From Verrucomicrobiales bacterium (GTDB taxonomy: Bacteria; Verrucomicrobiota; Verrucomicrobiia; Limisphaerales; UBA11358): a DNA stretch of 64,000 nt. Numbering within the stretch: position 1 is the stretch's first letter; each line of letters starts with the position of its first letter. Location: assembly GCA_028712475.1 (NCBI GenBank), contig JAQTQB010000005.1, positions 43,408-107,407 of the forward strand, written 5' to 3'. Position numbers and translations under genes: made by a program. Positions 102 through 46,300 of this stretch are shown piece after piece. The notes below the pieces were generated by a model. It saw only the letters and a list, made by a program, of their open reading frames with translations, was not told the DNA's origin and searched no databases.

Positions 102-142
102 GTGGAGCGCCGGGCACCGTCCCGGCTCGTTGGAAATTTAAA

Positions 143-1737: not shown

Positions 1738-2906
1738 GGCTTCAAGGTATTCAGCGCCGCAAGCAGTTCAGCTACGTCTTCCGCCGAGTGTGCAGCGGTC
1801 AGCGTGATCCGCAACCGCGCCGCGCCGCGCGCCACGGTCGGATAACGAATGGCGGGAATAAAAATGTTTTGCTCGCGCAGTTTTGCAGCCAGGTCAACGG
1901 CCTTGGTTTCGTCGCCAATCATGAGCGGGATGATGGCGCTGGGAATTGCGGATTGCAGATTGCGGATTGCGGATTGAAATTCTGCAACGCGCGACCGCAG
2001 CTTTTCTTTGAGTGATTTACCGGCGGCAGATTGAACGACTTGAATTCCTGCCGTGGCTGCCGCGGCGGCGGCGGGAACGGGCGCGGTGCTGAAAATGAAA
2101 CTGCGGGCGCGGTGCATGAGAAGATCAATCAGCGGACGCGAGCCGCAAATGTAGCCTCCGCTGGCGCCGAGCGCCTTGCCAAGCGTGCCCATCTGGATTT
2201 CAATCCGGCTGCCGACACCAAGCTCTTCCGCAAGGCCACGCCGCTTTTCCCCGTAAAGCCCGGTCGCGTGCGCTTCGTCCACCATGAGCCAAGCGCCGTA
2301 TTTGTCCTTGAGCATGACGATTTCCCGGAGCGGTGCGGTGTCGCCGTCCATCGAAAAAATGGATTCAGTGACGATTAGGACGCGCTTTCGATGTTGGATG
2401 TGTTTTTTTGCCCACATCAACTTTTCTTCCAGGTCGTTCAGATCATTGTGGGCAAAGACGCGGAGCTTTGCGCCGCTCAAGCGCGCGCCGTCCACGATGC
2501 AGGCGTGGACAAGTTTGTCGAGAATGATGATGTCGTCCTTGCCTAGCAGCGCGCAAATCGTGCCGGTGGCGGCGGCGTAACCGGTGGAAAATGTCAGCGC
2601 GGCCCCGGTCTTTTTGAAAGCAGCGAGTGTTTCCTCCAGTTCGTGAAACGGCGCAAGCGAACCGCAGATGAGCCGGGACGCGCCCGCGCCCGCGCCAGAT
2701 TTTTCGACCGCTTTGATCGCGGCCTCTTTAAGCGCCGGATGATTGGCGAGGCCGAGATAATCGTTGGAAGAAAAATTCAGAAAAGTTGTGCCGGCGATTT
2801 TGATTCTTGGCGACTGCGGTGAATCCACCCGGCGCAGTTCGCGGTGCAAGCCTTGTGCGCGCAAGGCTTCAAGGCGCTGGTTCAATTCTTCATCGAACGG
2901 ATTCAT
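1734..2906 (-). CDS. bioF: 8-amino-7-oxononanoate synthase (BioF)
   Basis: 390-aa ORF with an alpha-oxoamine synthase signature: NFSSNDYLGL, GAGASRLICG, LMVDEAHATGLYG, and GTLGKALG containing the PLP lysine. It lies immediately upstream of bioA and overlaps it. Confidence 0.92.
   Translation of the reverse strand: MNPFDEELNQRLEALRAQGLHRELRRVDSPQSPRIKIAGTTFLNFSSNDYLGLANHPALKEAAIKAVEKSGAGAGASRLICGSLAPFHELEETLAAFKKTGAALTFSTGYAAATGTICALLGKDDIIILDKLVHACIVDGARLSGAKLRVFAHNDLNDLEEKLMWAKKHIQHRKRVLIVTESIFSMDGDTAPLREIVMLKDKYGAWLMVDEAHATGLYGEKRRGLAEELGVGSRIEIQMGTLGKALGASGGYICGSRPLIDLLMHRARSFIFSTAPVPAAAAAATAGIQVVQSAAGKSLKEKLRSRVAEFQSAIRNLQSAIPSAIIPLMIGDETKAVDLAAKLREQNIFIPAIRYPTVARGAARLRITLTAAHSAEDVAELLAALNTLKP
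1945..1976. repeat. Heptanucleotide tandem repeat (ATTGCGG/ATTGCAG)x4.5 inside the bioF coding sequence
   Basis: Direct reading gives attgcgg attgcag attgcgg attgcgg attg. On the coding strand it translates as FQSAIRNLQSAI. Confidence 0.9.
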
Positions 2907-2913
2907 CGGGGGA

Positions 2914-2991
2914 ATTTACGATTTGAGACTTGCGATTTACGAGCCAAAAGACTCACTGTCGCGTCAATCGTAAATCGCATATCGTAAATTT
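2914..2991. repeat. Two inverted heptamer arrays (ATTTACG family) forming a long imperfect hairpin in the bioF/amidohydrolase intergenic gap
   Basis: Left array, 2914-2941: atttacg atttgag acttgcg atttacg. Right array, 2969-2989: cgtaaat cgcatat cgtaaat, which is the reverse complement of atttacg atatgcg atttacg. About 27 nt separates them. Confidence 0.8.
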
Positions 2992-4234
2992 ACATCGGCG
3001 GAACCGCCCAACGGCCATCAATCATGCTGGCCTTCACATTTCCCGCGTGGGCGAGAACGGTTTCGTAAGCGTCGGCGGATTCTGCCCCGGCTGGAATCGC
3101 AATCAAATCGGCGAAAGCGTTTTTGGCAAGCTCGCCAGTCTGTCCGGCCAGACCCAGTGCGCGGGCACCGTTGACGGTGGCCATGCGGAGAATTTCCAAC
3201 GGCGAAATAGTTTTATCGGCGGCTGCAAGCTGGCGCATCTCTTCGAACATGTTGAGTTCAGGTTTTTGCTTTCCGGTCTTGCGCGTCGTGGCCAGGCTGT
3301 CCGTGCCGAGGCAGAGGTTGGCGCCCGCGTTGGCAAGCCGTTCGCGCAGAAACGGCGCATGGCGGAAGTAATCATGGCTGCGCGGGCAATGCACGATGTT
3401 GACGCGGTGTTTGCCGAGCAGGGCGGCGTCGCCGCGCGCGAGATAGTTGACGTGGATGGCAAGCAGGTTTTCGCCGAGAATTTTATGGCGGGCGGAATGT
3501 TTCACGGGCGAACCGATGCCGCAGTCGCTCATGTCGCGCTGGTTCCGCTTAAGCCAGTCGAACATTTTGCCGCGCGCGTGCAGGAACATCTCAAATTCCT
3601 CCCCGGATTCAGAGATGTGGGTGCAGATGCGCCACTTTTTCTTGCGCGCAACCTCCGCGCTCAAGCGCAGCAATTCGGGCAGGGTGGAGTAGGGCGCATG
3701 GGGCGAAAGCGCGGCGTAACAGCGGGCGTGGGCCAGCGAATCAATTGTCTCGACGGTTTCGCGTAAAATTTCCTTTGGCTCACGGCGTGCGCGGATACCG
3801 GTCATTTCGAGAAACGAAAACACGCGCAACGGCGTGGCGTCCCAGGTTTCCGGCAGCAGGTCCGGCATGGCCTCGATGTCGGCAACGGTGGTCGTGCCGG
3901 TTTTCAAAAGCTGGTGCGCACCGCGCAGCCAGGAGTGGGCGTAGTTGGAGTAGCTCCAGCCGGTTTTGGCGGCGGTGATCAGCGAGATCCAGTCGGTGAA
4001 TGTTTTCGGCGGCGGCAACTGCCCGGCCATGTCCGTGTAATCCAGATGGCAGTGGGCGTTGATAAGCCCGGGCAGCAAGATTACTTCGCCGAGGTCAAAA
4101 ACTTTTTCGCCAGACTGCGGTTGCAAGTCCGCCCATGAACCGACAGCGCGGATGCGGTTTCCAGAAATCAGGACGGCGCCGTTTTCAATCGGCGGCTGCG
4201 AGACCGGCAGAATCGTGCGGGCGCGGAGAATCAC
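2990..4234 (-). CDS. Amidohydrolase-superfamily protein (chlorohydrolase/aminodeoxyfutalosine-deaminase-like)
   Basis: 414-aa ORF with the metal-binding motif LPGLINAHCHLDYT, a downstream HISE motif and GTDS. The subfamily cannot be fixed without a search. Confidence 0.78.
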   Translation of the reverse strand: MILRARTILPVSQPPIENGAVLISGNRIRAVGSWADLQPQSGEKVFDLGEVILLPGLINAHCHLDYTDMAGQLPPPKTFTDWISLITAAKTGWSYSNYAHSWLRGAHQLLKTGTTTVADIEAMPDLLPETWDATPLRVFSFLEMTGIRARREPKEILRETVETIDSLAHARCYAALSPHAPYSTLPELLRLSAEVARKKKWRICTHISESGEEFEMFLHARGKMFDWLKRNQRDMSDCGIGSPVKHSARHKILGENLLAIHVNYLARGDAALLGKHRVNIVHCPRSHDYFRHAPFLRERLANAGANLCLGTDSLATTRKTGKQKPELNMFEEMRQLAAADKTISPLEILRMATVNGARALGLAGQTGELAKNAFADLIAIPAGAESADAYETVLAHAGNVKASMIDGRWAVPPM

Positions 4235-4236
4235 TG

Positions 4237-4590
4237 CTAGACTCCGGCATCACGGCGGACTTTTTTCAGCTTGACGGCATCCTGATGCTTGTGCGCCTTG
4301 AATTTGTTGTGCTGCTTGCGGATTTGCTGCTCGATTTTTTTGGTCACGCGGTCAATCGCCGCGTAGAGGTCGCTTTCCACATCTTTGGCAAACAGGTCGG
4401 GGCCGCGCACGGCAAGGCGCATGGAGCATGAGAATTGTTTTTCCGGCACGCGCGTATGATCATGTTCAAGCGTGACGCGGGCATCAATGGCCCTTGGGTC
4501 GAAGTGATCCAGTTTTTTGATGCACTTCACGACATGCGCCTCGATGGCTTTGGTCAGGGTCAGGTTGTGAGTCGAGAGAATCAATTTCAT
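4237..4590 (-). CDS. hpf: Ribosome hibernation promoting factor (short HPF/RaiA family)
   Basis: 117-aa ORF MKLILSTHNLTLTKAIEAHVVKCIKKLDHFDPRAIDARVTLEHD... is typical of sigma-54 modulation protein/S30EA family N-termini. Confidence 0.87.
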   Translation of the reverse strand: MKLILSTHNLTLTKAIEAHVVKCIKKLDHFDPRAIDARVTLEHDHTRVPEKQFSCSMRLAVRGPDLFAKDVESDLYAAIDRVTKKIEQQIRKQHNKFKAHKHQDAVKLKKVRRDAGV

Positions 4591-9510: not shown

Positions 9511-9528
9511 GCGAAAGCAAAATTCAAA

Positions 9529-9558
9529 ACGGCGGACTGGAAACAGTCCGCCGTTTTT
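9529..9558 (+). terminator. Rho-independent terminator of gap
   Basis: Stem acggcggactg, loop gaaa, stem cagtccgccgt (11-bp perfect stem), followed by ttttt. It lies 19 nt after the gap stop codon. Confidence 0.85.
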
Positions 9559-9561
9559 ATG

Positions 9562-9673
9562 CGCTGAAGGCGCTACGGAAATTAGCCCAGGGTTGCGAGG
9601 TGGCCCGTCCGGCTCGGCCCGATCTACCCTGGGTAACTCGCAAAAAACAATTCCACCCTGAAGGGGTGGCGGA
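9562..9673. repeat. Structured repeat element, left copy (inverted partner at 14609-14707)
   Basis: The sequence cgctgaaggcgctacggaaattagcccagggttgcgagg...ctaccctgggtaactcgcaaaaaacaattccaccctgaaggggtggcgga matches the reverse complement of 14609-14707, apart from one 17-nt indel and scattered mismatches. It contains the small hairpins gcgc-tgaag-gcgc and ccaccc-tgaa-ggggtgg. It abuts the helicase stop codon. Confidence 0.85.
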
Positions 9674-9677
9674 AATT

Positions 9678-12600
9678 TTAGCTCGCAGCCGCAAGGTTCG
9701 GACGCAGATTCCACACAAAGCCGATTGAATCCAGTTGTTGTTTGCGGGCCGGAGAAATTTTGCCACGAAAGTTTGCCGTGCGCTGGCCATTGACCCATTT
9801 TCCAAGCCGCTTTTGCTCGAGCGAAATATGTTCGCGGGATTTTTGCGGGACGTTGCAATGACCGTGAATTTTTCTGAACTCGACGAGTGCTGTAAACATT
9901 CTCTCCCAACTCAATGGTTCAACGAGCATCCAAATAAAACCGAGTTCATCAAGCCGCTTGGCGCGTTCTGCCATAATTGGGCGTTTATATCGTTTCGCAG
10001 CCCTTTGGTTTCTAACCCATGTTCCGAGTTCCCGGTATTTGCCAGAACGTTGAGGCACATTTGTGTGACCATGCTCCTGCTTGAACTCGACCAACTGCCG
10101 AAAATATTTCTCCCAATGATTGCTGTTTGGATCCCAATCAAAGCCCAACTCATCGAGCCGACGGGATCGCTCCGCATCAAGCAATCCTTTATTATTGATC
10201 ACTCTTTGTTCTGAAACCCAATCTGCAAGTCTCGGATTTTCTTTGCAACGCTGGGGCACAAGACAATTCCCATGTGCTTGCTTGTATTGTTGGAGCGCGA
10301 GGAACATTGCGTCCCACGCCTGAGCAGCCGTCAGTATATTGCCGCGTTGATTGAGCATTGGCAGTGCGCCTCGTCGCTCAACAATCCACTCGAAGCCAAT
10401 TCCATCCAAAGCAGCCATGCGTTCAGCTTTTAATTCTCCATGCTTTTTGAATCGCCGTTGCGTGGCAACCCAGTTGGCAAGTTTGCGATTGCCTGACCAT
10501 TGCCCCGGAACTCGGCAATGACCATGCTCACTTTTGAATGCTTGGAGAGCTTCGAGCATTTTCCCCCAGCCCTCGTCATCGGATGAAACTCCACCATGTT
10601 GCGGCGACCAGTCGAAACCAAGTTCATCGAGTCGTGCAATCTGTGTTGAGTCAAGTTTCCCCTTTCGACGATCCCGGCGTTGAATTGTCACCCACCAGCC
10701 AAGCTTTCTATTCGGGACAAATTTCTGCGGGACATTTGCATGATCATTTTCCAGACGGAATTGTTTGAGCACTGCAAACATTGCTTCCCACGCTTGTCCG
10801 GGCGGTCGCCCACCAGACCAGCTAACGCGCCATGAGAATCCGAGCGCATCAAGTGCGGTGATGCGTTTGGCAGATAGTTTCCCAGCCACTTTGCGCGCTC
10901 TTTGAACTGCAACCCAACTGGCCAGCTTTGGATTCTTTGACCATTTCGTCGGAACGCGGCAGTGCCCGTGTTCAGAGTGGAATTGCCGGAGCATTTCAAA
11001 CATTTGTTCCCACTGTTTGGAAAGCGGTTGCCATTCAAAACCGATGCCGTTGAGCCTTTGTTCGCGCGCCGCGTCAAACTCGCCATTCTTTTTGAATTGC
11101 CGCTGGGTCACCATCCACCTTCGCAATTGCGCATCCATGACACTGTCACGCGGTTTTCCGTTGTGCATTGGCCGTAGATACTGAACCAACTTCGCGAACA
11201 TGGTTTCCCATTCACCATCATTCGTGTTCCAAGCAAAACCGATTTCGTCCATCTGCCGCACTTGGTCAGCCGTCAGGTTGTTCCGTTGCTTTGCTGCGCG
11301 CTGGTGATAAACCCACCGTGCCAGTTCTGGATTTGCCTGCCAATCGGCGGGAACATTGCAATGCCCGTGCAGCTTGAAGAATTCGCCCACTTCAGAAAAC
11401 ATCTCACTCCATGTGCGCGACACAGGTTTGTGAAAATCCGGCGGCAATTTCGGCGCTGGCGTGCTCTTGTTCCGCTGCCAAATAAATCCAACCGCATCCA
11501 AAGTGCGAAACCGCGCATCGCTTAATTGTCCGGTTTTTTTAGCCCTTCGCTGTGTCAACACCCAGCGGTTTAGCTTGGCCGTCTCGTCATCAATGACTCT
11601 CACGATTGAAGCGCCATTTGCAGACGCGCATTTTTTGAATCGCTCGAACATTTCAAACCACTGCTTGTCAGTGTTTGGAGGCGCAGGTGTCCATGGGAAA
11701 TCAATTTCGTCTAACCGCTTCTTAATTTCGACTGGCAGCGTTCCGTTCTTGAGTCGTCTCCGTTGCTCGGTCATCCAGTTCGCCAAGCCCGGATAATTTT
11801 TGTCGAGATGTGAAACTGCCAGATGTCCATGCTCGGCTTTATGTGCGAGCAGTGCTGCAATCCTCTCATTCAAATCTTTGGCCGGCGGCAAGGCGTTGGG
11901 CGCTTTCCACTCAAAGCCGATTGAGTTTAGTCGGCCTTCGTAGTCCTTGTTCAGTTTGCCTTGGTTGCCCTTGTATCTTTGGGCGGACACCCATCTACCG
12001 AGCAGTGGGTTCTCCTTCCATTTGACCGGCACAAGCGTGTGGCCAAACCGTTCTTTGTAAGCACACAACTCCGCGAATCGTTCATCCCAAGTAGCCACGC
12101 CACCCGTCCACTCAAATCCGATTTTCTCCAGCATCGCAATCCGTTCACTAGACAGCTTGTTGCGACCGTAATCAACGCGCTGGGAGCTGACCCACCTTGC
12201 AAGCTTCTTGTTTTCCTTCCAATTCAAAGGGACGAAGCAATTGCCAAAACGATTTCGGTAATCCAAGAGCGCAAGATAATATGTCCGCCATGTGCTGGCG
12301 TGCGGCGACCATTTGAATCCGATGCGGTCGAGCAGTGCGATTTTTTCTTCCTCTAGCACCCCATCTTTTTGCAGCACGCGCTGATTTACGACCCAAGTTG
12401 CAAGTTTCTGATTTTCCGGCCAACGGGCGGGCATGTCGCGATTCCCATGCTTCTGCTGATAAGCCAAGAGTTGTCCATAACGCTCAAACCAACCTTCACC
12501 AATCGCATCAAGACACGCAGCGGTAATTGATTGTCGCAAACTATCCAGCGAAATCTCCGGGCCAATCATTTCCAAGCGTTCACGAATACGACTTTCATCA

Positions 12601-14573
12601 AAGCCGCCAGTCCGTCCGCGTTGGATTCGCATATCGTCTATGATTTGCGACAGCAAATCATCCTGCTCTTTCAACGCTTGAAGGACTTTCCAAATCTCGT
12701 CGAAGTTGCTCCGCAGAACGGCTTGCTCAACCGTTTCGCCTCGCGTCTTCTCCACATAAAGCGGCACGAGCACATACCCGAATTGCTTGCCGGGCGACCG
12801 ACGCATCGCGCGACCAGTCGCTTGAACAATGTCAACCATGCTCCGGCGCGGCGCGAGAAACGCGACCATGTCAACCGCAGGCACGTCAACTCCTTCAGTC
12901 AAACATCTGGCGTTGGAAAGAATCGCGTGCGGCGCTGACTTGAACCCACGCATGACGCGCTCACGATAGGCGGTAGGCATCGCGCCTTCGATATGCTCGC
13001 AATGGAATCCCTGCAAATGATTGGAGATGCCCGCCGCTCCATCAGAGGTAAAAGATTTTGCGGCATCCACTCTTGAGTGAAACGTGAAAACCTTCGAGAC
13101 GTTGTATTTCTCAATGGCAGATTTTAGGGCGATTTGATTGGCAACCTGACGCGCTTTGATTTCTTCGCCTTTAACCAAGACAATCCCGCGCCGGAGCAAT
13201 TCGTCATTCACCATGTCAGAAGTAACTTCTGAAATGATGACTTTGTAATCAGAAATAATTCCTCGCTTCGCCGCCTCGCTGAATGGCAGACGGTAAACAA
13301 TCGGGCCGTAAGTCTCCCGTTTGTCCATCGAGAAAACAAGTTGGGCACCGCCATCTTTGTTTTTGGCGAGTGGATTGTAATGTCGCGGGGTGGCGGTCAC
13401 GAACAGACGTTTGTGGATGGAAATGTTTTTATCTTCCAGCGCAAAACCAAAGTTGCGGCCTTCGCGTCCGGCGGTCTTGTGCGCTTCATCAAACACGGCA
13501 AAGTCAAACGCCTCGCCCGGCTTCATCGCCCCGCCAACGACGGACGCGGATTGGTAGGTGGAGAAAATCATTTTCACGCCGGCAAAAGGTGCGTCCAGAA
13601 AACTCCGCACGCTCGCGGTGTCGGTGGAGACTTGAAAGTCGAGGTCGGATTGTTGCGTGGTGAGCGCGTCTATGCCTTCCTTCACGGTCGGGTCGGAGCA
13701 GACGCAGAGATAGGCGAGACCCGGCAATCGGGTTTCGCGCAGCCATTCGTGAAGGGTCTGCCGCAGCAACGCAAGCGAAGGCAGCAGGACGAGAATCTTG
13801 CAACCAGCATTGGTGGGGCGAGGCTCCTGACGAGCCGGTTCGGTGGAATTTCCAGCACGGCTCGCGGGGACGCTTGCCCCACAGGCCTTCGCAATATGTT
13901 CAGCCACCCAAAGTGCAACGAGCGTTTTGCCCGTGCCGCAAGCCATGATCGCGGAAACGCGGTCGTGTGTTTGCAGCGCGGGGAGCAAGGCGTCCAGCGC
14001 TTCGGTCTGGTGCGGGAGCGGTGATTTTTTCGGCGCGATGAAAGCGGTGTCGGCCAGCCACGCTTCCATCGCGCGGAAGTCACCGGCTTCCAAACGATCC
14101 AAGTCCGAGCCACGGATGCAGAAGAAACCCTGGCGGTCATTGAGGACGGCGGGCAGTTCGTCGCAGTTGGTGAGCAGCACGCGGCTGTGGATGCGCGAAC
14201 TATCGGCCAGTCCGATGAAGGTGGAGAGTTCACGCCACGTCAGCGCCGGGCGTCCGGTGCGGAACTTGATTTGATAGGCGTTGAACTGGCCGAGCAAAGT
14301 TTGCAACACGCCGTCCACGCCCTGATCCTGCTGCGTGAGGCCGAGATTTTTGAGGATGTCGAGCGGGACGGAACCGTGCGGCCAGACTTGCGCGGCGTCG
14401 TATTTCCGTTGCGTGGCGAGATAGGCTTCGGCGAAAACTTCAAACGCAGCACCGCGAGATTGCTCGTCGGGCAGCGCGGCAATCTTCTGTTCCAATTCAG
14501 CAAAGCTGGTCAGGCCAGAGAACAAATGTCGCTGGACGAAGAAGGTCGCTTTTGGATGGCGAGCCGTTGCCAT
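9678..14573 (-). CDS. Large nuclease-helicase: N-terminal PD-(D/E)xK-like module, SF2 (type III restriction Res-like, DEAH) helicase, and 13 tandem helicase-associated (HA) domain repeats
   Basis: 1631 aa. The N-terminus has FEVFAEAYL...GVDGVL...YQIKFR, a restriction-endonuclease-like D...(Q/E)xK pattern. Helicase motif I is ACGTGKT, motif II is FDEAHK and motif VI is QATGRAMR. Thirteen repeats of about 67 aa follow, with the pattern W-x3-F-x2-L-x2-(F/Y)-x4-GH-x2-VP ... L-x-WV-x2-QR ... L-x2-(I/L)GF-x-W. Confidence 0.9.
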   Translation of the reverse strand: MATARHPKATFFVQRHLFSGLTSFAELEQKIAALPDEQSRGAAFEVFAEAYLATQRKYDAAQVWPHGSVPLDILKNLGLTQQDQGVDGVLQTLLGQFNAYQIKFRTGRPALTWRELSTFIGLADSSRIHSRVLLTNCDELPAVLNDRQGFFCIRGSDLDRLEAGDFRAMEAWLADTAFIAPKKSPLPHQTEALDALLPALQTHDRVSAIMACGTGKTLVALWVAEHIAKACGASVPASRAGNSTEPARQEPRPTNAGCKILVLLPSLALLRQTLHEWLRETRLPGLAYLCVCSDPTVKEGIDALTTQQSDLDFQVSTDTASVRSFLDAPFAGVKMIFSTYQSASVVGGAMKPGEAFDFAVFDEAHKTAGREGRNFGFALEDKNISIHKRLFVTATPRHYNPLAKNKDGGAQLVFSMDKRETYGPIVYRLPFSEAAKRGIISDYKVIISEVTSDMVNDELLRRGIVLVKGEEIKARQVANQIALKSAIEKYNVSKVFTFHSRVDAAKSFTSDGAAGISNHLQGFHCEHIEGAMPTAYRERVMRGFKSAPHAILSNARCLTEGVDVPAVDMVAFLAPRRSMVDIVQATGRAMRRSPGKQFGYVLVPLYVEKTRGETVEQAVLRSNFDEIWKVLQALKEQDDLLSQIIDDMRIQRGRTGGFDESRIRERLEMIGPEISLDSLRQSITAACLDAIGEGWFERYGQLLAYQQKHGNRDMPARWPENQKLATWVVNQRVLQKDGVLEEEKIALLDRIGFKWSPHASTWRTYYLALLDYRNRFGNCFVPLNWKENKKLARWVSSQRVDYGRNKLSSERIAMLEKIGFEWTGGVATWDERFAELCAYKERFGHTLVPVKWKENPLLGRWVSAQRYKGNQGKLNKDYEGRLNSIGFEWKAPNALPPAKDLNERIAALLAHKAEHGHLAVSHLDKNYPGLANWMTEQRRRLKNGTLPVEIKKRLDEIDFPWTPAPPNTDKQWFEMFERFKKCASANGASIVRVIDDETAKLNRWVLTQRRAKKTGQLSDARFRTLDAVGFIWQRNKSTPAPKLPPDFHKPVSRTWSEMFSEVGEFFKLHGHCNVPADWQANPELARWVYHQRAAKQRNNLTADQVRQMDEIGFAWNTNDGEWETMFAKLVQYLRPMHNGKPRDSVMDAQLRRWMVTQRQFKKNGEFDAAREQRLNGIGFEWQPLSKQWEQMFEMLRQFHSEHGHCRVPTKWSKNPKLASWVAVQRARKVAGKLSAKRITALDALGFSWRVSWSGGRPPGQAWEAMFAVLKQFRLENDHANVPQKFVPNRKLGWWVTIQRRDRRKGKLDSTQIARLDELGFDWSPQHGGVSSDDEGWGKMLEALQAFKSEHGHCRVPGQWSGNRKLANWVATQRRFKKHGELKAERMAALDGIGFEWIVERRGALPMLNQRGNILTAAQAWDAMFLALQQYKQAHGNCLVPQRCKENPRLADWVSEQRVINNKGLLDAERSRRLDELGFDWDPNSNHWEKYFRQLVEFKQEHGHTNVPQRSGKYRELGTWVRNQRAAKRYKRPIMAERAKRLDELGFIWMLVEPLSWERMFTALVEFRKIHGHCNVPQKSREHISLEQKRLGKWVNGQRTANFRGKISPARKQQLDSIGFVWNLRPNLAAAS
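13813..13882. repeat. Imperfect 70-nt palindromic element in frame within the helicase gene, between motif I and motif Ia
   Basis: Arm 13813-13837 is gtggggcgaggctcctgacgagccg. The reverse complement of arm 13858-13882 is gtggggcaagcgtccccgcgagccg, a 19/25 match. The loop contains ggaattt, as does the bioA element loop. It encodes CGASVPASRAGNSTEPARQEPRPTN. Confidence 0.7.
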
Positions 14574-14608
14574 GCGGAAAGAGTATCAATTCATTCTGCG
14601 AAGAAAAG

Positions 14609-14707
14609 CCTCCGCCACCCCTTCAGGGTGGAAATAATTTTTGGGGCGTTTTCCTAGGGTAGCTCGTTCCTCGCAACCCTAGGCTAATTTCCGTTACGCC
14701 TTCAGCG
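14609..14707. repeat. Structured repeat element, right copy (inverted partner of 9562-9673)
   Basis: See 9562-9673. It begins 36 nt upstream of the helicase start codon. Confidence 0.85.
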
Positions 14708-14716
14708 TATTTGAAT

Positions 14717-14800
14717 TCACTTCGTCGTCTGCGGCGTTTCCTGAATCACTTTTTTCTGCTCCAGCTTTTCCAGCTTGGGCGCGATGAACAAGCCACAGTC
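14717..14800 (-). pseudogene. Relic duplicate of the msrA 3-prime end (last ~25 codons plus stop)
   Basis: The minus-strand frame reads ...CGLFIAPKLEKLEQKKVIQETPQTTK*. The C-terminus of the intact MsrA is ...GYCRVVIAPKLEKLEKAKVIQTEPQTGKN*. DNA 14729-14787 aligns with 15349-15407 at roughly 78% identity by hand alignment. Confidence 0.65.
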
Positions 14801-14810
14801 GCGCATCATT

Positions 14811-15065
14811 TCAGCGATACACTTCGCGCCTGTGCCCGACGGTGATGACGAGGATTTGCAAAACGCGGTCATGGATTTCGTAAATCACCCGGTAATCGCC
14901 GATGCGAATCCGCCACGCGTCGCGGCCTTTGAGTTTTTTCACGTCCTGCGGGCGCGGGTTGGTTTCCAATCCGGCCAGCCGCGCCAAAACCCGCCTGGCG
15001 ATTTCATCCGGCAGACGATCCAGTTCCTTCTGAACCGACTTGGGCAGGATGACTTAAAATTTCAT
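14811..15065 (-). pseudogene. RelE/ParE-family type II toxin with an in-frame TAA at codon 4
   Basis: The minus strand reads ATG AAA TTT TAA GTC ATC CTG..., giving MKF*VILPKSVQKELDRLPDEIARRVLARLAGLETNPRPQDVKKLKGRDAWRIRIGDYRVIYEIHDRVLQILVITVGHRREVYR*. The ATG overlaps the antitoxin stop in a classic ATGA junction. No ATG, GTG or TTG occurs in frame within the first ~35 codons after the stop; the first is GTG at 14951-14949, too far in to give a full-length toxin. Confidence 0.8.
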
Positions 15066-15292
15066 TTTGCCTTGCGGCTTCGGCTGGCGCGGTAGCTCGT
15101 CAGGGTGGCGCACTGGCCGGCGGCAACTTCGGAATGCGCCCGGTCGTGCAGGACGTCGTAAGCCTGTATGTCGGCCAATTCTTCTTCGGCTGCGCGAAGA
15201 TGCTCGTAAGTCTGCAAATCAAGCACGACGCCGGTGCGTTTGCCCTTGGCATCTGTGAGAAACTGTTCACTTTTGACGGCCAGCGTTTTCAT
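15062..15292 (-). CDS. Type II antitoxin (Phd/YefM- or RelB-like)
   Basis: 76 aa, MKTLAVKSEQFLTDAKGKRTGVVLDLQTYEHLRAAEEELADIQAYD.... It sits immediately upstream of the RelE/ParE-like frame with a 4-nt overlap. Confidence 0.75.
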   Translation of the reverse strand: MKTLAVKSEQFLTDAKGKRTGVVLDLQTYEHLRAAEEELADIQAYDVLHDRAHSEVAAGQCATLTSYRASRSRKAK

Positions 15293-15333
15293 TGGAAAAT
15301 TTTAACCGATTCCAAATTATTCGCAACTCGTTA

Positions 15334-16005
15334 CTAATTCTTCCCGGTCTGCGGCTCGGTTTGGATCACTTTTGCCTTCTCCAGTTTTTCCAGCTTGGGC
15401 GCGATGACGACCCGGCAATAGCCCTGGCTGGAATTGTTGTCGTAGTATTCCTGGTGATAATCCTCGGCCTTGTAAAATTTCTTGAGCGGCACGATTTCCG
15501 TGACGATGGGATTATGGAAATCCGCCTGCGCCGCCAGCTTGGATTTTTCCGCGAGCAGTTTCTGTTTCTCATCACGATACAAAATGATGGAGCGATACGA
15601 CGTGCCCACATCCGCGCCCTGACGGTTTAACGTGGTCGGGTCGTGCGCCTGCCAGAAAACTTCCAGCAGCTTGCTGTAGGAAATTTTTGCGGGATCAAAT
15701 TCAATCTCCGTGACCTCGGCGTGGCCGGTCGTCTCGGTGCAGACCTGCTGGTAGGTCGGATTTTCCGTGGTGCCGCCGGCAAAGCCGCTGGTCACGGAAA
15801 CCACGCCGGGCAGCCGTTCAAACACGGCCTCCATGCACCAGAAGCAGCCGCCGCCGAGATCGGCGATTTCAGTTTTGTTCGTCGCGGACATTTTGGATTC
15901 AGTTGTGTTTATAACTGACTTGGTTGATTGAGCCGGTTGTTCTGCACGCGAACAAGATAAATTCAACGCGCCTACAGCCAGCAGGAGAGGGAGAATGTTT
16001 TTCAT
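15334..16005 (-). CDS. msrA: Peptide-methionine (S)-S-oxide reductase MsrA with an N-terminal lipoprotein-type signal
   Basis: 223 aa with the signal/lipobox LLLAVGALNLSC and the catalytic GGGCFWCMEAVF. Confidence 0.93.
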   Translation of the reverse strand: MKNILPLLLAVGALNLSCSRAEQPAQSTKSVINTTESKMSATNKTEIADLGGGCFWCMEAVFERLPGVVSVTSGFAGGTTENPTYQQVCTETTGHAEVTEIEFDPAKISYSKLLEVFWQAHDPTTLNRQGADVGTSYRSIILYRDEKQKLLAEKSKLAAQADFHNPIVTEIVPLKKFYKAEDYHQEYYDNNSSQGYCRVVIAPKLEKLEKAKVIQTEPQTGKN

Positions 16006-18696: not shown

Positions 18697-21069
18697 TTAT
18701 GTTCCTCCGTTTTTGCGGGACGGGTTGCGCCGGACCTTCACAAGCACAACCATGACAGCAACCCACACACATCCCCACCCAAACCAATCGCCATGCCGGT
18801 TGTAAAAGGTCGGCGCGGGTTTTTCAGCCGGCAACGGCAGTTCCATGGTCATCCAGCCGGGGCCGTAAATGCCGCCGGTGGCGTCCTTGAAAACCTGCCG
18901 CACCCGTCCGTGCGTGTCTATCCAGCAGGTCACGCCGTTGTTGCAGGAGCGCACGAGCGGCAGGCCGTTTTCCACCGCGCGGAAAATCCCGGCGGCGGCC
19001 TGCTGCCATTGCTCCGCGCCTTCGCCGAACCAGCCGTCGTTGGTCAGGTTCACAAGAAAATCAATGTCATCGCGGGCGGAATCGCGGGCGGTCTGCGGAA
19101 ACATGTCTTCAAAGCAGATCAGCGGCGCGGTCTTGATGGGAGCGCCGGCCTCCGGCCCGGCATTCAGGGAAATCACATTTATTTCGGGCCGGGCCGGAGG
19201 CCGGCGTTCCAATTCAAAACTCCCGGGTTTTTCGCCGGCTTCGTAGCCGCCGGTGATGGGCGTGAGCCATTTCACGAATGGCAGCCAGCGCACGAGCGGA
19301 ATGTATTCGCCGAAGATGACGAGCTTTTGCTTGTGATAGACGCTGACAAATTTTCCATCCGGGTCGAACAGGAACGCGGAGTTGAAAACGTCGTAATCAT
19401 TTTTGCCCTTCGCATCGGGCCGCCACACGGCGTCGTCCGCATTAAACATCATCCAGACGTGATGCGCGCGGACGAGGTTGGTGATGGCGGCGTAGCTGGC
19501 CTCGTCGAATTCCGGCAATGCCGATTCCGGCCAGATGAGCAGGTCGGTTGAACCTCTCACCTCGTCCGTCTGCCCGTTTGGCGGGGCGATGGTGGAGGAA
19601 GCCAAAGCCTTTTCCGTGAGCGCGAGCAATTGCTGAAAGCGATTTGAATTTGCGCTCGAGTCCCAAATCATGCTTTGCGGCACGCTTGGCTGAATCATCG
19701 TAATGCGGAGCGGGGCAGGGCTGAAACTGGAGTCTGGCTTGGCCCGCATTTGAAAACTGCCGGTGGCAAACAAAATGGCGACGACGAGCAGCGGCAGAAA
19801 AACTTCCGGCTGCCAGGCAAAGCGCGCGTCCGGCTTGGAAAAAATGGCGAGCATTGCCGAGAACAGCGACAACGAAACCCACACGACCAGAAACGAAACG
19901 CCATAAACACCCGTGACCGCCGCGATTTGAATAAGCGGCGTAAGCTGATATTGGGACGTGCCGAGCATGTTCCACGGAAACCCGCCGAGGAAACGTGCGC
20001 GAATCATTTCAAGGCCGACCCAGGTTGCCGCGCCCGCCAGCGCCCAAAGATTTCGCCTTGTCCAGGTGCCGGCTCCAATTTTTCCAGCGAAGAGCCACGT
20101 CCAGACGGCAAAGTAAAGAGCCATGAACGCGCTCAACGCGACCCAGCCCAAAACCGGATAGCCCGCCACGGGAATCAGCAGCAGCCAGTAAAGTGATGCG
20201 AGCCAGAATGAAATTCCGGCGACGTAGCCGACGCGAAAGGCATCGCCGCCAGATTGACCAAGCGCGGCGACGAGCATCAGTGCAGGCGCGACCCACGCAA
20301 AACCGGCGATGCCGGGGTTGGGAAATGCTGCGGCCAGCAAAAGCCCGGCGACGATGGCCAGCAGGTAGCCGCTGCGGATGAACAGTTCGTTCCAGACACT
20401 TTTGAGAATGGTGAATGGTGAATAGCCATCCACAAACGTCGGCCCCGGCTTCGTGCATTTCGCGGCCTTCTTCAAAACCGACGGACTCGCGTTGACGACC
20501 ACGGCTTCGCGCGAACCGCGCCACACGGCGAAATCGGCAGAGGAATTTCCGGCGTAATCAAAACCGCGCGCGCCAAATTTTTCCGTTAGCAGCTTGAGCT
20601 TGTTTTCGCTCCGCAAATTGGTTTTGCCGTCGCTGCCCAGCACTTCGTCAAACAAACCGACGTGACTGGCGACGGGCAGGGCCATTTGCAAGTCCGATGC
20701 AGTGGCGAGAATCAGTTTTCGCCCGCCAGATTTTTGTTCGCGCAGAAACGCCAGAAATTTTTCGTGATAGGGCAGGGTGACGGGATCAATTTTAATCCGC
20801 CGTGCCAGTTGTTTTTTTAGAAAGGCGCGGCCGCGCATCCACCAGACCAGGACGGGCAGAAGCCAGAACGGATTCCGCCGCAGCAAACGCGCGAGGTGTT
20901 CCCAAAGCAGGTCGGTCTTGATGAGCGTGCCGTCCAGATCCACCACGAGCGGGATTTGATTTGAGGGCGGCGCGGCTGGCGTTGACGGCATAGGGATGAT
21001 TAACCGTTGAGCGCGCGGTGGGGCAAGGTTTTTTTGGCCGGGAAACGGACGGGGCATCTCGTGATTCAC
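18697..21069 (-). CDS. lnt: Fusion protein: N-terminal HAD-IB-like phosphatase domain plus apolipoprotein N-acyltransferase (Lnt: polytopic membrane domain and CN-hydrolase domain)
   Basis: 790 aa. HAD motif I is VVDLDGTL, motif II is LATAS, and GNSSAD is motif-IV-like. Multiple TM helices follow, then a CN-hydrolase domain with LIWPESA and the catalytic-Cys context PLICFEDMF. The start overlaps the upstream gene in an ATGA junction. Confidence 0.85.
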   Translation of the reverse strand: MNHEMPRPFPGQKNLAPPRAQRLIIPMPSTPAAPPSNQIPLVVDLDGTLIKTDLLWEHLARLLRRNPFWLLPVLVWWMRGRAFLKKQLARRIKIDPVTLPYHEKFLAFLREQKSGGRKLILATASDLQMALPVASHVGLFDEVLGSDGKTNLRSENKLKLLTEKFGARGFDYAGNSSADFAVWRGSREAVVVNASPSVLKKAAKCTKPGPTFVDGYSPFTILKSVWNELFIRSGYLLAIVAGLLLAAAFPNPGIAGFAWVAPALMLVAALGQSGGDAFRVGYVAGISFWLASLYWLLLIPVAGYPVLGWVALSAFMALYFAVWTWLFAGKIGAGTWTRRNLWALAGAATWVGLEMIRARFLGGFPWNMLGTSQYQLTPLIQIAAVTGVYGVSFLVVWVSLSLFSAMLAIFSKPDARFAWQPEVFLPLLVVAILFATGSFQMRAKPDSSFSPAPLRITMIQPSVPQSMIWDSSANSNRFQQLLALTEKALASSTIAPPNGQTDEVRGSTDLLIWPESALPEFDEASYAAITNLVRAHHVWMMFNADDAVWRPDAKGKNDYDVFNSAFLFDPDGKFVSVYHKQKLVIFGEYIPLVRWLPFVKWLTPITGGYEAGEKPGSFELERRPPARPEINVISLNAGPEAGAPIKTAPLICFEDMFPQTARDSARDDIDFLVNLTNDGWFGEGAEQWQQAAAGIFRAVENGLPLVRSCNNGVTCWIDTHGRVRQVFKDATGGIYGPGWMTMELPLPAEKPAPTFYNRHGDWFGWGCVWVAVMVVLVKVRRNPSRKNGGT

Positions 21070-34174: not shown

Positions 34175-34385
34175 ACGAAGCGCAGCGTTCACGCCGCTTC
34201 ATCGTTCGTGGCGAAAAGTTTTCTGGTTGAAACCGGGCTTGAAGTTTTTGAGGGTTCAAGCGGGCTGAAGCCCGCGCTCCGGCTGCAACGAGATCAAGCT
34301 TACGACGCCATCACTTAAAATCCGTTGGGCGATCTTTATCGCCCTTGCGCTGCTCGCGCTTGCCGTCCGCCTCCCGCAACCCGGC

Positions 34386-35804
34386 GTGCGGCCGATGCAC
34401 ACGGACGAATCCATCAACGCCTACATCGTCGGCCAGTTGCTTGCCGGAGAAAGCTTTCACTACGACCCGCAGGATCGTCACGGCCCGGCGCTCGCCGCCG
34501 AAACCCTGCCGTTGGTCAAATTGCTTGGCGTAAAAAAGTTCGCCGACCTGACCGAACCTCAACTGCGCATGGTTCCCGCCCTCACAGGAGCCGTCACCGT
34601 TTTACTATTTGGCGCGGGCGTGGAGATATTTGGATTCACAGCGTGCATCATCGCTGCGCTGCTGTTCGCCTTCGCGCCGCTGCCGGTTTATTACAGCCGC
34701 TATTTCATTCATGAAACCTTGTTTGTCGCCGCCACCCTGGGGCTGATTCTTTCCGGCGGGCGGGCGCTTAAAAAAAAATCCCTTCTGCCCGCCGCGCTTG
34801 CCGGAGGCTGCGCCGCTGTGATGCTCGCGTGCAAGGAAACGGCGGTCATCCACTTCTTCGCACTGGCCGTTGTTCTGATTGCCCGCTGTTTGGGAACGCC
34901 GGCCTCCGGCACGGCCCGGACGAAAGAATTTTTGAAACACGTCGTGCCGGAGACCGGCGTTCCGTCCGCAAAGATAATTTTCACCGCCGCCGCAGTTTTT
35001 ATCTTCACCGTGATTTTGCTGTTCACCTGGTTCGGCCAGAACTGGCCGGTGTTTTTAAATTTGCTGGACGCGATTCCACGCTTCGCCGACCGCGCCGGTG
35101 GCCAAGGCCACGAAAAGCCGTTCTGGTATTACTCAACCCTCCTCGGTGGCGGCTGGTCGGGCGCGGTGATTCTTGGTCTGGCGGCGCTGGGCATTTTTCG
35201 CGCGTTCAAATCGGGCCGCAGGCTTTGGGTCGTCATTTACGCGTTGCTCATCGCCGTGATTTACAGCGCGATTCCCTACAAAACTCCGTGGCTCGCTCTG
35301 AACCTCTGGCTGCCGCTGGCAATTCTCGCAGGCATGGCGCTCGAATGGATTTGGTTCGCCACGTCAAAACTTCCCATCCGTGTTTTGGTTCTGGTTTTCA
35401 TCGGTGCGTTAGGAATTTTAATCGCCCATGACACGCGGCAACGGGTGTTTGTGAATCCTGCGGGCGAAAAAAATCCCTATGCCTACGCCCATACTTCCGA
35501 AGATTTGCTGCGCCTGCCGGCGCGTCTGGAGGAACTGGCGCGGGAAAACAAAATTCAAAATCCGCTCATCGCCGTGGTCGCCGCCGATGCGTGGCCGTTG
35601 CCCTGGTATTTGCGGAAATTTCAACAGACCGGCTTCTGGCAGCCGGGGCAGGAGACCGGCCCGGCGGATTTTTTCATCACCACGACGGATGTGCACGGCA
35701 CGCTGGCAGAGCGATTGAAAGATTTCCGCCCGGAATTTTTCGGCGTCCGCCCGGAAGTCCTGATGATTCTCTGGACGCCGCTGCCGGCTGGAAACAAACC
35801 ATGA
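34386..35804 (+). CDS. GT-C-fold-like polytopic membrane protein (TIGR03663/Agl23-like family). The annotated GTG start probably truncates the first TM helix.
   Basis: 472 aa with RPMHTDESINAYIVG near the N-terminus and many TM helices. The same frame is open upstream from 34269 and encodes a TM-like segment, KIRWAIFIALALLALAVRL, but no ATG, GTG or TTG occurs there. Confidence 0.72.
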   Translation: MRPMHTDESINAYIVGQLLAGESFHYDPQDRHGPALAAETLPLVKLLGVKKFADLTEPQLRMVPALTGAVTVLLFGAGVEIFGFTACIIAALLFAFAPLPVYYSRYFIHETLFVAATLGLILSGGRALKKKSLLPAALAGGCAAVMLACKETAVIHFFALAVVLIARCLGTPASGTARTKEFLKHVVPETGVPSAKIIFTAAAVFIFTVILLFTWFGQNWPVFLNLLDAIPRFADRAGGQGHEKPFWYYSTLLGGGWSGAVILGLAALGIFRAFKSGRRLWVVIYALLIAVIYSAIPYKTPWLALNLWLPLAILAGMALEWIWFATSKLPIRVLVLVFIGALGILIAHDTRQRVFVNPAGEKNPYAYAHTSEDLLRLPARLEELARENKIQNPLIAVVAADAWPLPWYLRKFQQTGFWQPGQETGPADFFITTTDVHGTLAERLKDFRPEFFGVRPEVLMILWTPLPAGNKP

Positions 35805-43390: not shown

Positions 43391-46300
43391 TCAAAAGGAA
43401 TCAATTTTCCACGCGCCGTTCTCCTTAACAAATTCTATCGGAAATGTGATGGCTTGTCCGTCAATCGTTTGCTGGAAATAGTATTCAGCCGTGTCACCAT
43501 TAACAAAAACTGGCTTCAGTGTTCCGATCTGACCAATGGCGGAAATGGTGGTGACGGTGCCAAGATCAAGAAATGACTGCCGGTATTTGTCTGCCGAGAG
43601 GCTGGAGAAATCCGATGCCGCGCCCGGAATGTCGGCAGCGGCAATCCGGGCGGTCATGTGGTTCCAAACCGCCAGCACGGGGTCCGCATCTCCACTCGGA
43701 GCTGTGCATAGAATCACGCGGTTGTTGCCGGTGTCGGCAATATAGAACAGGTCGTTGGTGAAATTATTGACCGCAGCCACCGCATACGGCTGGCTTAAAT
43801 TGGTGGTCACTGCGTAGTCAATGCTGGACGCGGTGATGCTGAAAAACCCGCTTGCCGGAAATTTGAATTTCTGGATGCGGTTGTTGCCGGTGTCCGCCAC
43901 ATAAACGCCGCGCGTGCCAACGCAGAGGTTGACCGGCCCACTGAATTGTCCCAAGGCAGTGCCATTGGTTCCCGCCACGCCTTGAACCGAACTTCCCTGT
44001 GCCAGCACGATCCGGTTGTTCCCTGAATCCACGACATACAACGTGCCGACCGAATCATAGGTGAGTCCCTTGGGCGCATTGAACTGGCCGACGGCACTAC
44101 CCGCTGCGCCGAAGGAGGCGATGAATGCGCCGGTCGTCACTGCGAATTGCTGAATCCGATGGTTGCCGGAATCCGACACCGAAATGCTCTGACCGTCGGG
44201 AGTGACCGCGACATCGAACGGGGCATTGAACGCGCCGTTAGTTGTCCCGGAAATTCCGTTTGTAAATCCGATGACACCTCGAACACCAAAATTCGTGTCC
44301 GCCGCGAATGAACTGCTTGTCGGCTTCAATTTCCAAACCTGATTGCTGGCGCTCACGGCCACATAAACATTGCCCGCTGCGTCCACGTCAAAGCCCGACG
44401 GATTCGTGCCAACGCTGCTCAAGGAGCGGATGGTGCTGCCGTTGGTGCTGAATTCCGTAAGCGTCGCAGCGCTGCGCGACAAAACGTAAAGATTGGTGCC
44501 GATCAATTTTAAATCCACCGGGTCGGTGATGCTGGCGAACGTCGCCACCGTCGGCGGCATCTGCACATTGATGCGGATTGGCTGATTAATCTCGTCCAAG
44601 GCCACGGCGTTCCATCCGCCCACGCTGGAAAAGCGACCCGTGGTGGTCTGAATCGTAACGACCGGGAAGTATTCGCCGTTGGTCGCGTAAGCGTGGGTGA
44701 TGGAATTCAGATTGTTGGTGACAAAATCGGCAAGGCTGTCGCCGTTGAAATCATAAGCCGCCTGCTGAAAGGTTCCGGGCATATTGGTCTGAACCTGGAA
44801 CGTGACGGTCAACGGAGCAAAGCCGGCAATCGGCGTGGCCTGGAGTTGAACCGGATTGTTCAGGCTGCCATTAGCATTGGTGGTCGTAATGATGTTGATT
44901 GAAGCAACATTGGTGCTTCCGGTCAAATCTTCGAGCAAGGCTGTGATGATGTTGGTGCCCGCATCCAACGGCACGTTCAAGGCGTTAAAGTTTGTGCCAT
45001 TCACAAAGGCCAGAACGCCATTGACCGTGACTTGTTTCAGAGAACCAGCGGTGAAATTCCCGCTGACGTTCACCCTTGACGCGTTGAACGAGACATTGTT
45101 GACAGGATTGGTGATCGAAATGGTTGGCGGAACAGAATCCAGAACCAGAGTGGTCTCCTCCCATGTCTGATGCGCGTTTGACGGCAATCCCCGGAGTCCG
45201 ACCCAGACATCATGCGCTCCCTGATTTGTGCCGAGGCTTACCGTGAGATTGGATGACGTGTAGGCTGTCCACGTTGCCCCCGCAAAATTCGTGCTGTCCA
45301 CCAGCAACGCGAAGTAAGACGGCACGCCGCCCAAAACCGTGATGATGCCGCTGACGATGTTGGTGCTGACGTATTGATTCGCAAACGAGAAAGCAAAGCT
45401 GATTTTGTTCGGGTCGGCGCCGTTCAGATATTCCTGCAAATTATTGGTGCCATCACTGTCATAGTCACCGAGCGGATCCAAACCACCATGGCCGAAATAG
45501 TTTGTTTCCCAAGTCCCCAGCGCGCCGTCGGGATTCGCCAGATAATCCGGCAGGCCCGACCAATAGGTGCCGGCCGGATAACCGATGATGTTCGGATTGA
45601 AATTCGTTCCAGTGTAATATCCACCGCTGCCAATCTGCACGGAAACCATGTCATCCAGAAAATTCGCAAGGGGAACATTGGTTGGAAAATAGACCCAGAA
45701 TGATGTCAGCCCGGACGAATCCGTAGTCAAGGTCAGGCTCGTCTCCGCAATGCCATTCGTGGCCGTGGCAAGCTGGACTGCGCCACTGACAATTGCGACA
45801 GCTTCCTCGATGTTGGTCAGCGGTGCTGAACCGGCTCCGGTGAGTTGCACCGTCACCGGCAGAAACATCCCGGCGGCGTTCGTCTGATATTGACCGCCGG
45901 TTATCTGAAATTTCGGAATGACAATGGTTAGTTGCAAATTGGTTCCCACCCCCAGCCCGCCTTCAGGACTGGCGGCATAAAAGTTGATCGTGCAATTGGT
46001 GTTGACCGTATCAAAGGCATAGGCAAACACCTCGACCTCCCCGTTGGTGCCGGTATCAAGTCTTAAATCGGAGAATTCATTGTATTGAATAACCTCCGCA
46101 TCCGAATTGGTATCCAACCATAAATCACCTTGGGCAACCCGGACATAGACCGGTGCATTGGTCAACGGATTGCCCGCCAAATCGGTGACCCGAAATTGAA
46201 ATGATTGCGCCAGGAAAGGATTAGCGCAGGCCCCAGCCTGGATGATTTGAGGTTTGGGTTCAACGGGATTGTAGTAAACAGAGTAGGGCCGGGTATAGTC

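Follow-up and report, generated by a model that had tools for sequence, protein, structure and literature searches.

The window analysed here (the whole stretch of 64,000 nucleotides of contig JAQTQB010000005.1, from the Verrucomicrobiales assembly GCA_028712475.1) contains, at positions 9559-14710, a single large nuclease-helicase gene enclosed by two inverted copies of a structured repeat, hereafter called arms. The repeats have the appearance of termini of portable defence-gene cassettes, a family that has not been described before, and we regard it as moderately probable that the segment is a non-autonomous one-gene cassette, bounded by inverted structured terminal repeats and moved in trans. 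The support for mobility is comparative. The features of the locus are given below; loci from other genomes and metagenomes are denoted by L and a number, and the hairpins of an arm by H1 to H3 from its outer end inwards.

9526-9557, no strand assigned: bidirectional intrinsic terminator of gap, in flanking DNA also found in relatives (left junction)
9559-9688, plus strand: 3' arm, with the forward sense of the element on the plus strand, convergent with the helicase gene (from inverted repeats I1/I2 and alignment)
9561-9573, plus strand: H1 of the 3' arm, a 4-5 bp hairpin, GCGC-TGAAG-GCGC (from folding)
9574-9585, plus strand: linker of the 3' arm, conserved and single-stranded, TACGGAAATTAG(CC) (invariant columns in alignments of copies)
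9586-9633, plus strand: H2 of the 3' arm, a long hairpin with lower stem CCCAGGGT.GC / GC.ACCCTGGG, a conserved T.T mismatch and a variable tip
9653-9669, minus strand: H3 of the 3' arm, CCACCC-TGAA-GGGGTGG, followed on the minus strand by AATTGTTTTT; terminator-like for the helicase gene (terminator scan)
9678-14573, minus strand: cargo gene, 1631 aa, with an Mrr-type nuclease, an SF2 helicase motor (ResIII/Helicase_C) and 13 HA repeats (Pfam)
14574-14595, minus strand: leader between H3 and ATG, ...GAATGAATTGATACTCTTTCCGC-ATG, kept in L003, L020, L021, L027, L028, L038, L044, L047 and L048
14596-14710, minus strand: 5' arm, with the forward sense of the element on the minus strand, the same sense as the helicase
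14615-14631, 14653-14683 and 14696-14708, minus strand: H3, H2 and H1, respectively, of the 5' arm
14712-14790, minus strand: remnant of the native msrA 3' end, which aligns with the msrA end of L049 (right junction)

The two longest inverted repeats of the window, I1 (9641-9688 / 14596-14643) and I2 (9559-9600 / 14669-14710), both belong to the arms. Aligned end to end, the arms have a mean column identity of 82% and, as stated in an earlier note made from the letters of this DNA alone, a single 17-nt indel; hairpins H1 and H3 are also as that note described them, but the arms run slightly further than it gave. The left (3') arm starts directly past the T-run of the gap terminator and, where the note had it touching the stop codon of the gene, it in fact covers the helicase stop codon (9678-9680) and the codons just before it. 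The right (5') arm ends 22 nt, and not 36 nt, from the helicase ATG (14571-14573). Blocks of 23-26 nt are perfectly conserved between the arms, and the conserved arm blocks occur in two copies each in the 64 kb, against a chance expectation of 0.13 and 0.00 matches. The covariance model of the repeat described below (R1) matches the 3' arm at 9558-9643 (73.8 bits, E=1.8e-19) and the 5' arm at 14643-14711 (78.6 bits, E=6.8e-21). The 17-nt indel is the tip of the central hairpin H2, the extra stretch being carried by the 3'-arm copy, and comparison of the H2 stems of the two arms reveals a compensatory C>T / G>A change (CCCAGGG/CCCTGGG vs CCTAGGG/CCCTAGG). Across the family, arms are ~115-130 nt long and follow the order H1 (4-6 bp stem, GAA/AAA-type loop), linker GGAAATTAGCC, H2, A-rich linker, H3; the H3 layout of the 3' arm in the window recurs in L044, L047 and L048. 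A consensus scan found no sigma-70 promoter in the arms. The gcgggc-tgaa-gcccgc hairpin at 34260-34275, which had been considered similar, proved to be an unrelated, isolated intergenic 6-bp hairpin; it has neither linker nor H2, the covariance model is silent on it, and it was rejected as a family member.

The cargo protein is restriction-like. Its residues 36-482 match the PADLOC model PDLC03597 (Type IIG/ISP-like restriction enzyme; E=1.8e-87), and PADLOC and Pfam scans describe a Type ISP/IIG-like N-terminus with no methyltransferase; the 13 HA repeats stand where Type ISP/IIG enzymes have the methyltransferase and target-recognition half. A variant in L017 (1392-4685) has the same N-terminus and another C-terminal repeat (GW..GDWLGT type, weak INT_rpt match). 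The G+C content at third codon positions (GC3), a comparison that the note had proposed, is low in the helicase gene (0.58, more precisely 0.576, and 0.53 in the HA part) compared with 0.65-0.81 in neighbouring genes. Distant homologues of the helicase (~30% identity) are frequent on Streptomyces and Pseudomonas megaplasmids.

This repeat, widespread in Verrucomicrobiota of soil and peat and also an element of soil Planctomycetota, is low in copy number, conserved and covarying. With an exact-pattern scan, it was detected in three GTDB genomes, including a Verrucomicrobiales and a Phycisphaeraceae metagenome-assembled genome (MAG), and in 39 metagenome contigs from soil, peat and rhizosphere, ~34 of which carry real copies; close homologues of gap bear the label Verrucomicrobiae. 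For model R1, which was run on the window and on all loci, 29 distinct copies were used. In the 29 copies, H1 is paired in 100% of the cells (pair types AU/GC/UA and GC/CG/AU/UA/GU) and the whole structure in 97.9%, and none of 500 shuffles reached the observed covariation, slid registers being far off too. It should be noted that the search pattern fixed the 5' half of H2 and part of the linker region; independent evidence is therefore provided by H1 as a whole and by the complementarity of the 3' half of H2. In the source sample, a landfill metagenome, the summed word depth of the element core was 215-244 (12 contigs), compared with 21.8 for the single-copy helicase contig of the same run, which implies ~10 copies at most. 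The core gave 0 matches in IMG/VR and none in PLSDB; carriage by a phage or plasmid was rejected on this evidence, the megaplasmids mentioned above having only the ~30%-identity helicase homologues.

A second R1 copy was present in 16 loci, with 14 convergent pairs, no divergent pair and two tandem pairs (L020 and L027, the second L027 match being weak). Compared with the 25% expected by chance, 14/16 corresponds to a binomial p=2.6e-7, or p=1.1e-5 if the helicase cassettes are counted once. The convergent copies are arranged around genes in nine loci (the window, L011, L017, L022, L038, L041, L043, L047 and L048) and stand 80-600 nt apart with little or nothing inside in five (L007, L014, L019, L029 and L037); another convergent pair, L057, was found later and is outside this count. 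In the cargo-less pairs L019, L014, L007 and L029, the copies are 80-210 nt apart. An apparent divergent pair in L030 (Ga0182028_1294622) was rejected as an assembly artefact, because bases 1-2153 of this fold-back contig are the reverse complement of bases 2188-4336 (98.6% identity). Inside a pair there is either nothing or one or two genes, for the most part genes of anti-phage defence. The cargo observed is as follows.

Nuclease-helicase: window, L017 (variant helicase, then a HEPN-like open reading frame, ORF), L047, L048, L057
Dsr1-type SIR2 protein: L022 (E=6e-55; Pfam/PADLOC), also L024
Type I methyltransferase and specificity (S) subunit: L011
Type IIG enzyme: L002/L016
DUF4145/HEPN-like ORF: L038
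GIY-YIG-like ORF: L027
ORFs with no family assignment: L041 (256 aa), L028 (203 aa), L037

All cargo types have the outer arm part (H1-linker-H2) in common, whereas the inner part (A-rich linker, H3 and leader) is cargo-specific. The helicase-type 5' arm, with its leader and the first codons (ATGGCAA...), also precedes unrelated ORFs in L027, L028 and L038, which gives the impression that one cargo was exchanged for another behind a fixed leader.

These counts bear on an explanation also listed in the earlier note, namely that two members of a dispersed intergenic repeat, similar to the repetitive extragenic palindromic (REP) elements, flank the gene by chance. Single copies beside housekeeping genes do exist, and the related Acido-Lenti-1 motif discussed below occurs in tandem and alternating arrays in Lentisphaera. 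However, with ~10 copies in the source metagenome, two of them in the 64 kb, instead of the hundreds of randomly oriented copies that the note had named as evidence against a cassette, with 14 of 16 pairs convergent, and with the bracket kept around helicase orthologues down to 52% identity in differing contexts, coincidence is contradicted and very improbable.

The helicase and both arms are inherited as a unit in unrelated neighbourhoods. Both arms are present around the orthologues of L047 (72% identical to the window protein), L048 (64%) and L057 (52%, with arms of a diverged subfamily), while in L044 (83%) both arms are truncated inside H2 and in L056 (58%) no arms were detected; P0003 (81%) is a protein only. 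These orthologues sit among differing neighbours and are not syntenic. In addition, many contigs with helicase homologues have a length of only 4.5-6.5 kb, which suggests that the assembly stopped at a repeat on either flank. Between the window and L048, identity at codon position 3 is 0.41 (saturated), but the arms are still 0.83-0.85 identical, and therefore appear to be under purifying selection. Across cassettes, an arm resembles the arms of its own side (5' or 3'), which suggests that the divergence between the two arms is old. Where arms are truncated, as in L044 (both arms) and L029, they break inside H2.

Comparison with relatives gives a view of the locus without the cassette. L049 and L050, whose gap genes are 94% identical to that of the window, show the order gap, ~440 nt with a small ORF, msrA, yacG, tsp; they share the synteny of the window with no helicase, no toxin-antitoxin pair and no model match. 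The impression of an inserted islet was therefore right, and the synteny check suggested with it finds the helicase lacking from the gap-msrA interval of the relatives and its orthologues located elsewhere. At the left junction, homology to relatives (L049/L055) stops between CCGCCGTTTTT and ATGCGC, which is the outer end of the arm, and at the right junction it resumes at about the boundary between GCGTAT and TTGAATTCAC, again the outer end of the arm. The gap-msrA spacer differs once more in L053/L054 and in L055, and appears to be a variable hotspot; an exact insertion footprint was not obtainable there, because the spacer of the relatives varies from genome to genome. A second series was found between MFS and acyltransferase genes, where the helicase cassette is complete in L047, L034 has one palindromic solo unit H1-L-H2-L'-H1' (matched on both strands, with 77.9 and 48.6 bits), L031 a single arm, and L029 a left arm cut at the H2 tip together with a complete reverse arm.

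Next to the cassette, a parE-like toxin gene (14811-14987, minus strand) and a relB-like antitoxin gene (15062-15292, minus strand) lie between the msrA remnant and the intact msrA (region 14712-15410). The last ~75 nt of the intact msrA are a second copy, 79% identical, and the remnant is the closest of the two to the msrA end of the relatives. The toxin-antitoxin pair, which is missing in L049/L050, looks like an acquisition by recombination inside msrA.

Such exchange by homology could also account for the cassettes themselves: the arms would be landing pads, and cassettes would be swapped by RecA-dependent double crossover in the arms or flanking genes after DNA uptake, with no dedicated enzyme. 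The lack of target-site duplications at 13 pairs and of a transposase in the window would be expected, the perfectly conserved blocks of 23-26 nt common to the arms would provide the homology, and differing cargo is indeed found inside the same outer arms; the hypervariable gap-msrA spacer and the neighbouring toxin-antitoxin pair, with the duplicated msrA end that it left, fit as well. On the other hand, exact-identity blocks of 23-26 nt are about the shortest on which RecA recombination is efficient, the inverted arrangement of the arms is left unexplained, and the covariation of H1 and H2, together with the invariant T.T mismatch, indicates a constraint on structure for which homologous recombination has no need. 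We consider portable homology improbable as the explanation of the arms.

A different question is whether the arms act as DNA or as RNA. In the 29 copies, the strand favoured by G.U-type cells is the one that, in the 5' arm, has the sense of the cargo. Metatranscriptome contigs carry the element, and one of them spans 14523-14716, from the element into the coding start; these contigs are unstranded and may include DNA, so that the transcribed strand is not decidable from them. These data are compatible with an expression module, in which the 5' arm would be a promoter-proximal structured leader and the inverted 3' arm a terminator or stabiliser, the complementary untranslated regions might form a panhandle, and the arms, as the control of a toxic product, would be inherited together with defence genes that are transferred horizontally. 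In favour of this, the stop codon is followed at once, in the window, L047 and L048, by a terminator-like antisense H3 with a U-run, and the H3-to-ATG leader is conserved and reused with other ORFs in L027, L028 and L038. However, there is nothing to express in the cargo-less pairs and in the solo palindromic units, and the outer arm is identical for unrelated cargo. Moreover, the H1-H2 part of the 3' arm, with a convergent terminator on either side (H3' and the gap terminator), has stayed 85-90% conserved, which, together with the cargo-less pairs and the solo units, argues for a role at the DNA level. A module for expression is thus an unlikely, although not far-fetched, alternative; of the RNA-level insulator or stabiliser suggested in the earlier note, the terminator-like antisense H3 stands, while the cargo-less pairs find no explanation in it.

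Inverted repeats around a defence gene may also be the sites of a site-specific invertase that flips the gene on and off. Phase-variable restriction systems are common. In the present case, however, no recombinase gene is nearby (among the 45 ORFs of the window), the promoter-proximal leader is within the span of the arms and would flip with the gene, contigs of the source run show no strand-changing joints at the arms, and cargo-less pairs exist. We give very little credit to phase variation by inversion.

The arms were then compared with known systems. The Acido-Lenti-1 RNA motif (Rfam RF01687; Weinberg et al. 2010, PMC2864571) is a multi-copy, intergenic motif of Lentisphaerae, Planctomycetes and Acidobacteria. 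At gathering thresholds, Rfam gave no match in the window; in a permissive scan, RF01687 scored 19.0 bits on the right arm, 16.7 on the left arm and 21.9 on L007 (gathering score 37), on the strand opposite to the cargo sense. The reverse complement of H2-linker-H1 has the same layout as the motif and a near-identical key sequence, as can be seen by comparing seed members such as CCUAGGGCUUACGCCCUAGG-CUAAUAAGGUA-CGGGCCUUCAGCCCU with CCUAGGGU..ACCCUAGG-CUAAUUUCCGUUA-CGCCUUCAGCG of the present element. In terms of the RF01687 layout (8 bp and a 4-nt loop; 5 bp and a 3-nt loop; a ~12-nt linker starting CUA), the lower stem, the start of the linker and the second hairpin match, and an extra variable stem stands in place of the tetraloop. 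Both elements are multi-copy and intergenic, and come from related or co-occurring phyla. In contrast, the present element has an expanded H2 (the extra variable stem) and an additional H3 module, and pairing around defence genes is not described for the motif (PMC2864571). On these sequence comparisons, we treat the element as a probable expanded relative of Acido-Lenti-1 and not as a member. In the published seed (PMC2864571, supplement 183; 70 unique sequences), paired columns on the annotated strand contain 38 A.C/C.A cells vs 8 G.U cells, an excess which suggests that the opposite strand pairs better; wobble statistics favour the strand opposite to the Acido-Lenti-1 annotation both in the present copies and in the seed. 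The Rfam strand of the motif may therefore be wrong, or the motif may act as DNA.

The closest architectural analogues are mobile insertion cassettes (MICs) and MITEs (miniature inverted-repeat transposable elements), pdif modules and integrons, and each of them fails at least one defining feature here. The repeats of MICs and MITEs are 15-40 bp double-stranded transposase-binding sites that match known insertion sequences (IS), and these elements make target-site duplications. Terminal inverted repeats, no transposase inside, passenger genes or cargo-less miniatures, and presumed mobilisation in trans are common to them and to the present cassettes, which also show presence and absence at orthologous sites (gap-msrA; MFS-acyltransferase). 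Examples are MIC231, the qnrD and qnrS2 MICs and the Tn3-type MICs of Xanthomonas (PMC3913671, PMC4337579). The present arms differ in consisting of >100 nt of covarying hairpins and in having no target-site duplication at 13 pairs, and no cognate autonomous element or IS with the same ends was seen in ~0.6 Mb of loci or in the window.

The pdif modules of Acinetobacter plasmids, considered here along with Xer-dependent integrative elements, are one- or two-gene modules, often for toxin-antitoxin systems or resistance, located between inversely oriented sites and handled by a host enzyme. Their sites are 28 bp long (XerC-6 bp-XerD), with a fixed spacer and a recognisable consensus. The likeness lies in the inversely oriented sites around small modules with no inner recombinase, and in two inverted half-sites about a centre; however, H2 has a centre of variable length (9-26 nt) as opposed to the fixed 6-bp spacer, no dif-like sequence is apparent in it (no search was aimed at one), and the context is chromosomal and in another phylum. 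Integron cassettes are promoter-poor and carry a single gene, often for defence or a toxin-antitoxin system, with one attC each, in a co-oriented array beside intI/attI. An attC site, too, is defined by its folding into a hairpin, with conserved boxes in the stem, bases left unpaired and a variable terminal structure, in a cassette with no recombinase. The present cassettes have two inverted arms each, occur at isolated loci and have no intI or integrase in the 64 kb; in a test for the attC R' core, H2 reads GGGTTGCGA, which does not fit GTTRRRY. Finally, REP sequences are palindromes of 20-40 nt, present in hundreds of copies and with no gene cargo, whose inverted doublets (REPINs) are mobile, the REP-associated tyrosine transposase (RAYT) being encoded once elsewhere. 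Short structured intergenic palindromes and an inverted doublet as the mobile unit are shared features, but the present unit is >75 nt long, has ~10 copies in the source metagenome and comes with cargo; no RAYT was found, the whole genome being outside the search.

Among the three options of the earlier note, a cargo cassette bounded by terminal inverted repeats and mobilised in trans fits best, as the pair recurs around other genes and around nothing. Several points weigh against it. The note was correct that the cassette contains no transposase or integrase (Pfam), and no transposase or recombinase was found among the 45 ORFs of the window scanned against Pfam either, nor between any pair examined, and no mobilising enzyme was found. 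The outer flanks of 13 pairs, where the note had suggested looking for target-site duplications, have none and share no consistent motif, the sole candidate being the imperfect AAAGCGG(T/CT)(C/T)GAC of L007. At the gap-msrA locus, the cassette takes the place of ~410 nt of the spacer of the relatives and is not a clean insertion, and homologous exchange of the whole intergenic region is an equally possible route of arrival there. Neither an excised circle nor a within-population presence/absence polymorphism was observed. The orthology of 5' arms among themselves, and likewise of 3' arms, also fits fixed expression signals, and single copies beside ordinary or housekeeping genes are common. 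In addition, the copies were ascertained by an exact 19-mer, which biases the sample to conserved copies.

If the cassette is nevertheless of this kind, it is or was moved by an enzyme encoded elsewhere, which would recognise the outer, cargo-independent part of the arm (H1-linker-H2). Binding or crossover is likely to take place at the palindromic H2, in which two inverted half-sites are combined with a fixed T.T mismatch and a variable tip; we propose this role because the breakpoints of truncated copies cluster in H2. The solo palindromic unit H1-L-H2-L'-H1' would be an empty or scar state, and the inner, cargo-specific part of the arm would provide expression signals, namely the leader before the ATG on the 5' side and H3 with the U-run terminator on the 3' side.

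A broader hypothesis, which is tentative and on balance doubtful, is that Acido-Lenti-1-type hairpin repeats in general are not small RNAs, but the attachment or terminal sites of integron-like, architecturally distinct, exchangeable single-gene defence cassettes across the Planctomycetes-Verrucomicrobia-Chlamydiae (PVC) superphylum and its neighbours. In this scheme, H2 would be cut and joined by a recombinase specific for hairpins or palindromes, the solo units would be empty sites, and the inverted arms would be hybrid sites generated by integration of a circular cassette.

Some further observations were made. Many arms are preceded by CACGAATT direct repeats with a period of ~10-11 nt (L017 1190-1236, L029 735-775), which are also found free of the element (L053 7770-7800). 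As they are missing from several arms, including the left arm of the window, and stand alone in L053, they were rejected as an obligatory part of the element; they are a separate repeat module, which may act as protein-binding sites or as a preferred target. The contig L002 (CAYYWB010000106.1), labelled as a Bifidobacteriaceae MAG, contains CACGAATT repeats and an element of the Verrucomicrobia type; with the peat metagenome contig L016 it shares 3.4 kb at 100% identity, and it is probably mis-binned. A small GC-rich repeat, GGGAGCGCCGGCCTCCGGCCCGGC, has four copies in the window (102-126, 19137-19161, 19188-19213 and 34891-34925), with a hairpin pair at 19136-19213. Last, positions 43391-49726 of the window encode a 2111-aa protein with RCC1-like, NHL and glucodextranase-B domains, a giant surface/repeat protein with no relation to the cassette.

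If the elements described here are mobile cassettes, they would provide little-studied soil phyla with a route to shuffle single anti-phage genes (Dsr1, restriction-modification, Type ISP-like nuclease-helicase, HEPN) without phages, plasmids or integrons. Genes of unknown kind between the arms, such as the 256-aa ORF of L041 and the ORFs of L028 and L005, would become candidate new defence genes, and an enzyme able to recognise a structured site of ~75 nt would be a candidate new recombinase. If the relationship to Acido-Lenti-1 holds true, it would also assign a role to a 15-year-old orphan Rfam motif, perhaps annotated on the wrong strand.

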